A stretch of DNA of 64,000 nucleotides from assembly GCA_951804945.1 (NCBI GenBank), contig OX638159.1:65906001-65970000 (forward strand). The letters are read 5' to 3'. How positions within the stretch are numbered: the first letter of the stretch is position 1; every line of letters starts with the position of its first letter. The notes under the pieces are model-generated. The model searched no databases. It saw nothing but the letters and a program-made list of their open reading frames with translations, and was not told where the DNA came from. Shown here in pieces: positions 53,301-56,300 of the stretch. The translations under genes and the position numbers were made by a program. The DNA is from Podarcis cretensis. Taxonomy: Eukaryota.

Positions 53301-56300
53301 TTCCCGTCCCCGAACATTGTACTTGTTCGTTCATTGGTTCCCCGGGAGCTGGTGCTCTTTCTGCCTTGACAAAGTGTTCCCTCTGACTTCCTCCAACTCC
53401 TGATAGTGATGGGAGGGCATCAGGTCCTGGGGCGCGGGGGCGGGCATGGCACTCCAGCCATCTCACTTGTTTCTCACTCCAAGACTCTCTGCCAGTTGGG
53501 CTTCCAGCTCCAAACATCAACTGGGCTTCTCGGAAACTGGCGGGGAGAGAGAGATCTGTTCACTTCCTGCTGGCTGGGCTATTGAATTTGCAGAACTCAC
53601 TTCCTGCCTAAGGAAGAAAGGTCTTCCTCCATCCATCCCTGGCCTTCTCACCTGTATCTGGCCTGAAGGCTTTGCGCAGAGAGAGTCAGTGGCCTTCGCA
53701 TTTATCTGTCTCACTAGTAACCTGTCTTTGGTGTTTCCTCCTTCTGCTCAGCCCTGCATCCTGATGAACAACATCCAGCAGCTGAGGGTGCAGCTGGAGA
53801 AGATGTTTGAAGCCATGGGGGCCAAGGAGGTGAGAGCTCGGAGGAGCCCTTCTGAGCGTGGGGCTCAGCACTGCCTCGTCAGCTGGTCGGGGATTGGATT
53901 TTGTGGTTGGGGAAATGGGTAGCTTGCAGGCCTGCCCCTGCTTGCATCATGCACCACCAAGAGTCAGAGTGGTGAACTATAATTCCCACCAGGCCCAGCC
54001 TGAAGGCTAATGGTCAGAAGGGGGGGGGGGAGAGATGGACAGACATGTTGGCTACTCCTGTCATAGTCAGAGAAGGAAGGGAAGATGAGATCACGGCCTT
54101 CGTTGAACACGTTTCCTAACTCTTGAGTTTCTAAAGGGTTCGTATGGATGTGCTGATTCTTACTTTATAAATGGCCTGAAACATTCACACCATCGGTTTG
54201 CCATGTGGCGGCCAACCTGAGTGAAGCTGGGTTGCTGAAAGCTGAGGTGCAAATGTGTAAAGACTTTGCTGAATGAGTCTGGTTTGAAAATGTGCTTCTT
54301 CCAAAAGCAAGTTCCAGCTGCTACAATTGGCTTTGGGTCATCCTTCGCAGCTGAACAGACTGTGTGTGCCCTTTCTCATGATTCTGGATGCTTGCTGGGC
54401 CTGTGTGGATACAGCTGTGTTGCCTGATGCCTTCCAAGCCTTAAACGCCTGTTGTCCTTAACTGGAGGCAGGATTTCCCTCCTCTATCGCTGATTCAAGC
54501 TGTGAGATTTTCTGTAATGCTGTGAGAATGCTTGGTCTAACCTTTGCCTGTCTGTCTCTGTCTTTCCCTTGCTTTCCAAGACTGAGAATGTGGAAGAGAA
54601 GGAGAAGGAGAAGGAGAAAGACCAGGATCAAAATCAGAATCAGGATGAGACTCAGAATCAGGATGAGAATCAGGAACAGAATCAGGAACAGGAAAAGGAA
54701 AAGGATCAGAATCAGGAACAGAATCAGAATCAGAATCAGAATCCTGAACCGAGGAATCCTAAGGCTGTTAGAATCCATATTGCTTACTCTTGGCCTTAAG
54801 ACACTTCCTCCTTAGCTGTGATTTCCTAGATCAGAGCTTTCTAGACTGTGTGTCGCGACACTCTAGTGTGTCGGCTGCAGAATGTAGGTGTGTGGTGCGA
54901 ATGCTCCCTGCACTCCTCCCAGGGCTGGAAAGGGGTTAGTTCAATCTCCGATTTGCTTGTAAAACTGAATTCCTGTGTCATGAAATGATGCCTGTCTAAA
55001 AAGTGTGTCACCAACATGGAAAGTTTGGAAAGCTCTGCCCTAGATCCTGAATAGATGTAGGCTCTGCACGTGGCAGGGAACTCCATGGTGGCAGCATGGC
55101 ATAGGGTGGCTTCTCCCTGGCAGCATGTCAGGAAGCAGCTCAGAGCTGTGCAAAATATCCTTAGGAAAAAGCATGGAATGGGAAGTGATGGCAGAGGCTA
55201 TTGGTTGGTGCGGAGAACAGACCCAGGCTGCCTTGGGCAAAGTGTTGCCATCCATCGGGTCTCTCTTGCTCCCTCTGGCCAACTTTGGTCTCCAGCACTG
55301 CTGCTAGGAAGAGGCCTTGGTGTCCCTGAAGTGCCTTAAGCGGTTTCCCCCTGGTGCCTCCATTCCGAGTTCTGCTCCGTGCAGATTCTCAGTCCCTCTT
55401 GCCTTAGCCTGTGTGCCGTGCAGGGACTCTGAATGCTGTTCCTCAGCCTGGCTAGTGAGTGTCGGCCACTGAGATAATGTAGCTCTCCCGCTTTTGGATT
55501 TAGTCAGCTGAACAAATAGCTAGAAACATTTGCTGCTCGTTTTAGTGCAGAGCTTCACCCTTCCCTCTCCGAAGCCTTTCCCCTTCCCAGCTTATCTAGA
55601 GTTTCCCATGAGTCACCTGCTGCTTTTTCTCTAGGTCTTCTGCAGCGGGAAGGCTTGCCAAATGAAAGCAAATCCTACACTTACAGGAACTTGCCTTCCA
55701 GGAATTCGTGTAGTCATAGTCATTGGTGGCCTTACCTAGCCTGTCATGTGTGAGTGTGTTGACCCTTTCGTTGTGAGTCTCCATGCAGTTGAGACTGGGG
55801 GAACATGGGAATCGCCTGCTGGATCAGACCAATGGCCCAATTGGTCCAGCATCCATGGACCTCCATCAGGCATTTCCCAGGTTTTTGCAGGGGGTGGGTG
55901 GACAGGAGAATGGAGGGCGGGGACTGGGCCATCTGCCTGCCTGCCTGTCTCTTTCTGAACTTATCCACATTTTCCTTTCCTCCACACTTTTCAGGCACTG
56001 TCTGCATTTTAAAGTTTTATGTCTGAGCACTTTTTTTTCTTGCTCCAGAGCAGCCATAGGCAAACTCAGCCCTCCAGATATTTTGGAACTACAGCTCCCA
56101 TCATCCCTAGCTAACAGGACCAGTGGTCAAGGATGATGGGAGTTGTAGTCCCAAAACATCTGGAGGGCCAAGTTTCCCTATGCCTGCTCCAGAGGTTTCC
56201 ACATGAAAACTCGCTCTTTACTGCTGAATTGGAGCAAACGGCAATGCACGGAAGCACCCACTTGCCGCTCCTTGCGTTTCATCTTTAAAGAGGAGGTTTT

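Follow-up and report, generated by a model that had tools for sequence, protein, structure and literature searches.

Retina-specific cassette exons of UNC13B have been described in chicken and mouse. Dataset S1 of Ciampi 2022 (PMC9303857) gives three chicken retina-specific exons, with sizes and spacing of 36 nt, 1.9 kb, 42 nt, 11.8 kb and 36 nt. For GgaEX2038205 it lists a PSI of 27.7 in retina, 0.85 in neural samples and a mean of 0.26 over 16 tissue groups; for GgaEX2038201 the values are 19.9 in retina and 0 in both neural samples and other tissues. Mouse Unc13b has a photoreceptor-specific, Msi1-dependent exon (PMC7948980; PMC4991804), which is 39 nt long and located between exons of 86 nt and 127 nt (PMC4991804). 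The human exon HsaEX1042971 is reported not to respond to MSI1 overexpression in the cell lines of PMC9303857. With respect to regulators, clusters of at least three UAG, 10-15 nt apart, are reported as enriched downstream of photoreceptor exons (PMC4991804), and SRRM3/4 are reported to favour short exons (PMC9303857). At mouse photoreceptor ribbons, ubMunc13-2 is described as the sole Munc13, and loss of Munc13-2 as having little effect on transmission (PMC7660176). Splicing of a different Munc13 exon is reported to be able to tune transmission (PMC12287369).

We analyzed a 64,000-nt stretch of Podarcis cretensis DNA, referred to as the window. It contains a longer cassette exon in the MUN region of the same gene, mostly composed of a hexamer repeat. 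An exon neighboring this cassette is 100% identical to UNC13B of Podarcis and Zootoca, and the gene is therefore, by sequence identity, lacertid UNC13B (Munc13-2).

Anatomy and annotation of the cassette exon

The cassette, its splice sites and the flanking exons are as follows:

53752-53829, + strand: upstream constitutive UNC13B exon, 78 nt, PCILM..MGAKE, phase 0; matches Munc13-1 chain 3swh 119-143
54537-54580, + strand: branch-point-like CTAAC, pyrimidine tract and acceptor CCAAG/ (sequence reading)
54581-54766, + strand: cassette exon, 186 nt, 62 codons (direct reading); ends identical in P. raffonei RefSeq proteins
54767-54772, + strand: weak donor GTTAGA (matrix score); used in RefSeq models
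59375-59463, + strand: downstream constitutive UNC13B exon, 89 nt, LDPEAS..VFGN, phase 0

Direct reading of 54581-54766 shows the AG and GT ends, the 0-0 phase and the absence of stops of an in-frame cassette, and the phase matches the flanking exons. A preliminary description had proposed a 186-nt, phase 0-0, stop-free exon, and its ends agree exactly with those in P. raffonei RefSeq. The acceptor anatomy given there was also found in the sequence: CTAAC at 54537-54541 is followed by a 37-nt pyrimidine tract, 52 nt without AG precede CCAAG/ at 54580, and the two TGC motifs lie at -36 and -11, with a third at -52. Its caution about the donor was justified, as GTTAGA scores -4.0 compared with +5.6 for the upstream exon, using a rough weight matrix. 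Two repeats were observed in the surroundings, a (TG)22 tract at 53038-53082, ~670 nt upstream of the 78-nt exon, and a very high-copy interspersed repeat at ~56000-56200 in the same intron as the cassette (depth >10,000 in reads of relatives).

The exon had been put forward as a novel candidate, but it is already annotated in P. raffonei RefSeq. Seven of the eight UNC13B isoforms compared (X1-X4 and X6-X8, e.g. XP_053264477.1) carry it between MGAKE and LDPEAS, with the same ends and the same first and last residues, while isoform X5 skips it, and thus included and skipped forms both exist. In P. raffonei the exon is known from automatic annotation only. Such alternative RefSeq models generally rest on transcript support. 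The P. raffonei insert is 52 aa long compared with 62 aa in the window; 52/52 aligned residues are identical, and the 10-residue gap corresponds to five whole hexamer units (5 indels). Among the other lacertid proteins compared, 0/25 carry the exon (P. muralis 18, P. lilfordi 4, Zootoca 3).

Reads were taken from 4 of 23 listed runs of relatives, for which the RNA nature is a guess and the tissue is not stated. The skip junction 53829-59375 was present in 2/4 runs. No inclusion joint was listed in the four runs, where 54583-54752 was masked and one joint was dropped. One relative's contig was unbranched across both splice sites and another's across the acceptor. The first of these contigs, with an intron divergence of ~4%, covers the masked array with an unchanged length of 170 nt. 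The exon is very probably real.

Short orthologs and probable growth of the hexamer array

Two parts of the exon are distinguished below:

54581-54601, + strand: likely ancestral core TENVEEK, in register with bird, alligator and gecko T/I-x-x-x-E-[EQ]-K
54602-54743, + strand: hexamer expansion, (GAGAAG)n followed by degenerate (CAGAAT)n (TRF); 5 whole-unit indels relative to P. raffonei

UNC13B inserts at the same junction are 11 aa long in alligator (TQDAEEKEAAD) and gecko (TPDGEQKKLDD), and 12-13 aa long in birds (TQEAEEKAADSD, IQEDEEKAADAD and relatives, in grouse, quail, malkoha, falcons and owls). Skipping isoforms also exist in gecko, grouse and falcon. TENVEEK agrees in register with six short orthologs (shuffle p 0.005) and is the best of the exon's 56 seven-mers. 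The Pogona vitticeps model ends reading through the exon, with IVDGEAEEKDPERKGPEC followed by VR.., which suggests an intermediate length of ~18 aa. Inserts of 13 aa in Pitangus and 114 aa in Phrynosoma look like gene-model artefacts and were left out.

The protein tallies derive from insert-favouring searches and, among the matches listed, indicate presence and not frequency. A total of 387 proteins were examined, with 369 scorable, 16 without the anchor and 2 without the downstream anchor; 284 are without an insert. Among the matches listed, an insert was present in 0/60 scorable mammalian UNC13B (63 examined) and was absent from turtle (28/28), frog (17/17) and snake (5 scorable proteins). 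Annotation gaps could explain some of the proteins without an insert.

From sharks to mammals, UNC13C also has an insert at this junction, 9-10 aa in length (10 aa in mammals), and lamprey has one of 11 aa. In UNC13C of the window genome (minus strand), the insert is a separate 30-nt phase 0-0 exon, KQEGERFSFE, ~790 nt into the equivalent intron, with a GAG/GTTTGT donor followed by a (TCC/TCT)n tract. Homology of the UNC13C and lamprey inserts to the UNC13B cassette is positional only; judged by position, the slot may date back to the origin of vertebrates. The earlier statement that no such insert is known in mammalian Munc13s therefore holds for UNC13B, among the scorable matches, but not for UNC13C. 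The claim of a lineage-specific cassette likewise divides, as only Podarcis, a lacertid, showed the long form, whereas short orthologs occur in birds, alligator and gecko.

TRF places the array at 54623-54743 (period 6/18), inside the exon. The splice sites at 54580 and 54767 sit in unique sequence outside it, and the repeat supplies neither. Only 6 loci of the 1.5-Gb genome contain exact (CAGAAT)4, and a DNA search of the same genome gave one other match, an uninformative plain (ATTCTG)n tract. A de novo exonization would be expected to lack outgroup orthologs and to take its splice sites from the repeat, neither of which is the case here, and the proposal that the exon was born from the hexamer repeat is not borne out. 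Because short orthologs share the junction in birds, alligator, gecko and, as a read-through model, Pogona, an exon that was already old is the likely birthplace of the repeat. By parsimony, this exon is likely at least as old as sauropsids and was short in their ancestor, with the repeat growing within it. We are thus confident, short of certainty, that an old exon has expanded.

The codon-wise variation of the repeat units had been interpreted as coding constraint. This argument fails, because forward frame +1 is also stop-free across the exon, a stop results from only 1/18 single changes of CAGAAT, and the variants of the unit mostly encode different amino acids (Q/E/K, N/D/E). The stop-free frame was also considered as a sign of selection and rejected, since with 2/3 forward frames open it is at chance level. 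Hexamer units keep the frame by construction.

Retina exons and the downstream UAG cluster

Two further cassette candidates in the window serve as synteny markers, and two features lie downstream of the donor:

41370-41405, + strand: 36-nt cassette exon candidate; matches bird and frog inserts
42020-42061, + strand: 42-nt cassette exon candidate; ortholog of the Msi1-dependent mouse photoreceptor exon
54769-54887, + strand: UAG cluster, candidate Musashi sites at +3, +47, +61, +76, +98 and +119 (motif count)
54832-55037, no strand assigned: 206-bp MITE, hAT-type, with 16-bp terminal inverted repeats and 8-bp target duplication

The 36-nt candidate matches the first half of a 26-aa bird/frog insert, and has strong splice sites and 3 UAG downstream; its peptide is absent from the mammalian inserts examined. 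The 42-nt candidate has 3 UAG in the next 100 nt, its human ortholog HsaEX1042971 is also 42 nt long, and it is found in none of the lacertid proteins compared. The window exon was considered as a counterpart of the mouse 39-nt exon, which was ruled out by the flanking exon sizes and the primer; the slot of that exon is 42020-42061.

The order in the lizard (36 nt, 0.6 kb, 42 nt, 12.5 kb, then the 54581 cassette) matches the order in chicken. Because order and spacing agree and the bird form has 12 codons, GgaEX2038205 is the likely chicken ortholog, judged by exon order, size and spacing alone. On the opposite strand reading the ortholog would be GgaEX2038201, also retina-specific; GgaEX2038205 is preferred given the 36-nt exon at 41370. 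In either strand reading, the 42-nt chicken exon is followed on its 3' side by a 36-nt retina exon. By analogy with the presumed chicken ortholog, the only form for which retina-specific inclusion is on record, the lizard cassette is probably retina-biased.

Five UAGs are located within 100 nt of the donor, a number that 0.3% of window tiles reach. Three of them (+47, +61, +76) are spaced 11-12 nt, in agreement with the Musashi-type pattern, in which the downstream intron has at least three UAG at intervals of 10-15 nt; the third is in the MITE. The MITE, which we take to be hAT-type from its 8-bp target duplication, starts 65 nt below the donor, is the source of the UAGs at +76 and beyond, and contains 4/7 of the UAGs within 200 nt of the donor; without it, the density is still 5 UAG per 100 nt. 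It has high depth in the reads of relatives, and is likely shared with a relative, because one relative's contig runs into it. The UAG count alone is non-specific, because donor 27398 in the window, which follows a C2B-region exon that looks constitutive, also has 6 UAG in 150 nt. UAGs also need not suffice, because HsaEX1042971 ignored MSI1 overexpression. With these limits, the weak donor and the downstream UAG cluster fit Musashi-driven photoreceptor inclusion, an interpretation towards which we lean slightly.

Features associated with SRRM3/4 were found in part. UGC motifs are present upstream (-11 and -36), which is a weak indication, as the downstream constitutive exon has a TGC at -9. 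Both the 186-nt exon and its 33-39-nt orthologs exceed the microexon length of 3-27 nt.

The MUN-domain loop and competing explanations

The upstream exon ends at position 143 of Munc13-1 chain 3swh. Combined with the Munc13-1 MUN construct of residues 1148-1531 (PMC3849599), this would place the insertion point close to residue 1290 (+/-1 or so) of rat Munc13-1. A fragment of gecko UNC13B that lacks the insert was examined as an AlphaFold model (35-row alignment), which has a mean pLDDT of 60 and values of 73-85 near the junction; there the junction falls in a loop of 7 residues that connects helices 134-155 and 163-189. The model thus agrees with the inter-helix MUN position suggested earlier, with a predicted short loop between two long helices. 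The site is elsewhere in sequence than the oligomer interface residues proposed in PMC12325603 (F1176, I1215, D1358, D1369, K1494-K1500). Because the 62-aa insert has a net charge of -11 and only one hydrophobic residue besides the terminal Ala, it is expected to be disordered. Among UNC13B inserts, the short forms have charges of -2 to -5 and the long forms -10 and -11.

Taken as a whole, the explanation we favour, with somewhat more assurance than doubt, is that an old 33-36-nt exon has grown about five-fold by hexamer slippage, is included mainly in photoreceptors via Musashi, and encodes a disordered acidic loop between MUN helices. The weak GCT/GTTAGA donor would make skipping the default, with the skip junction seen in relatives. 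In photoreceptors, MSI1/2 binding to the downstream UAG cluster would activate the exon, perhaps assisted by SRRM3 at the upstream UGC motifs. Slippage would be tolerated for two reasons, a chain that is partly shown: a 6-nt unit preserves the frame and hardly ever introduces a stop, and the loop that it extends is at the surface, remote from the oligomer interfaces known so far. For the protein, the likely effect would be small, electrostatic or steric, and limited to a minority of the Munc13-2 at ribbon synapses; it may be near neutral. Several results count against the favoured explanation: no inclusion joint listed in the four runs, the unbranched contigs of two relatives, the 0/25 tally for other lacertid proteins, and the turtle, frog and snake proteins that have no insert.

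Two alternatives concern the origin and fate of the exon. Birth in lizards from an intronic hexamer microsatellite would account for a long form found only in Podarcis, an exon that is mostly repeat, and mammalian UNC13B without an insert. Against it stand the short orthologs with the same start at the junction in birds, alligator and gecko, and the location of both splice sites outside the array; it is already largely refuted, and we give it hardly any credence. In the second, an old exon is decaying in lacertids: inclusion would be very low, the exon would have no function, and its expansion and weak donor would be signs of relaxed selection. This view draws on the donor itself, the absence of the exon from 25/25 other lacertid models compared, the absence of amino-acid constraint in the array, the MITE 65 nt below the donor and the apparent loss of the exon in mammals. 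However, two Podarcis forms agree in splice sites, frame and both unique ends, the ~4%-diverged relative keeps the 170-nt span across the array, and 7/8 P. raffonei RefSeq isoforms include the exon, which makes decay unlikely without being negligible.

The remaining alternatives accept an old, expanded exon and differ in its regulation or its effect. Inclusion that is pan-neural or in another tissue, driven by SRRM3/4 or by purine-rich repeat enhancers and not by Musashi, is compatible with UGC at -11 and -36, with the purine-rich units of the array, and with RefSeq models whose tissue source is not given. It is improbable in view of the UAG cluster downstream, the length of 186 nt where SRRM3/4 are reported to favour short exons, and the PSI of at most 0.85 that Dataset S1 lists for both candidate chicken orthologs in neural samples (PMC9303857). 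Selection for a longer acidic loop that alters priming, or the packing of Munc13 oligomers, at the ribbons of lizard cones would agree with the acidic character common to all UNC13B insert forms and with the tuning of transmission reported for a different Munc13 exon (PMC12287369). But the length differs between Podarcis forms (52 compared with 62 aa), and the site is not among the interface residues given in PMC12325603; such adaptive tuning appears very improbable. A fuller version of the favoured explanation is a long shot: wall-lizard photoreceptor Munc13-2 would have a microsatellite-variable acidic MUN loop of 50-60 residues, encoded by a short retina exon that outgrew the range of SRRM3 and stayed retina-specific via Musashi sites partly renewed by the MITE, with loop length tuning ribbon-synapse priming.

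Across vertebrates, inserts of 9 to 62 residues are accommodated by one loop midway along the conserved helical rod of MUN. The loop is therefore a site under natural control by splicing, and a candidate position for tags, of which our literature search found no description; nor did the search find a paper on the UNC13B exon 54581-54766 or its expansion. The exon itself is annotated, and it is the expansion of an old, likely retina-specific cassette that seems undescribed. The cassette would be the third likely retina-specific one in the MUN region of sauropsid UNC13B, and mammals seem to lack it. If inclusion in the eye is confirmed, it would allow one to ask, in a natural setting, whether the regulation of a short tissue-specific exon survives five-fold growth. 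The functional stakes look modest, because Munc13-2 loss is reported to have little effect at mouse photoreceptor ribbons (PMC7660176).

Comparison with the known systems places the exon as follows. The mouse 39-nt / human 42-nt exon, which is retina-specific, is, like the window exon, an in-frame MUN-region cassette of the same gene, but it is located in a different intron. The neural microexons controlled by SRRM3/4 also have UGC motifs before the acceptor but are 3-27 nt long, and the 6-nt Unc13b microexon, unlike the window exon, lies near the C1 domain. The worm unc-13 microexon was considered as a parallel and set aside, being a CaM-C1 exon. The 30-nt cassette of UNC13C shares with the window exon the junction, the separate phase 0-0 exon and the GTT donor, whereas it shows no clear sequence similarity and has 1 UAG in 100 nt and no repeat. 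The P. raffonei RefSeq isoforms carry the window exon itself in a shorter form. The short sauropsid cassette has the same junction, phase 0-0, acidic character, T/I-x-x-x-E-E-K start and optional use as the window exon, but is 33-39 nt long and non-repetitive, compared with 186 nt and repeat-rich in the window.
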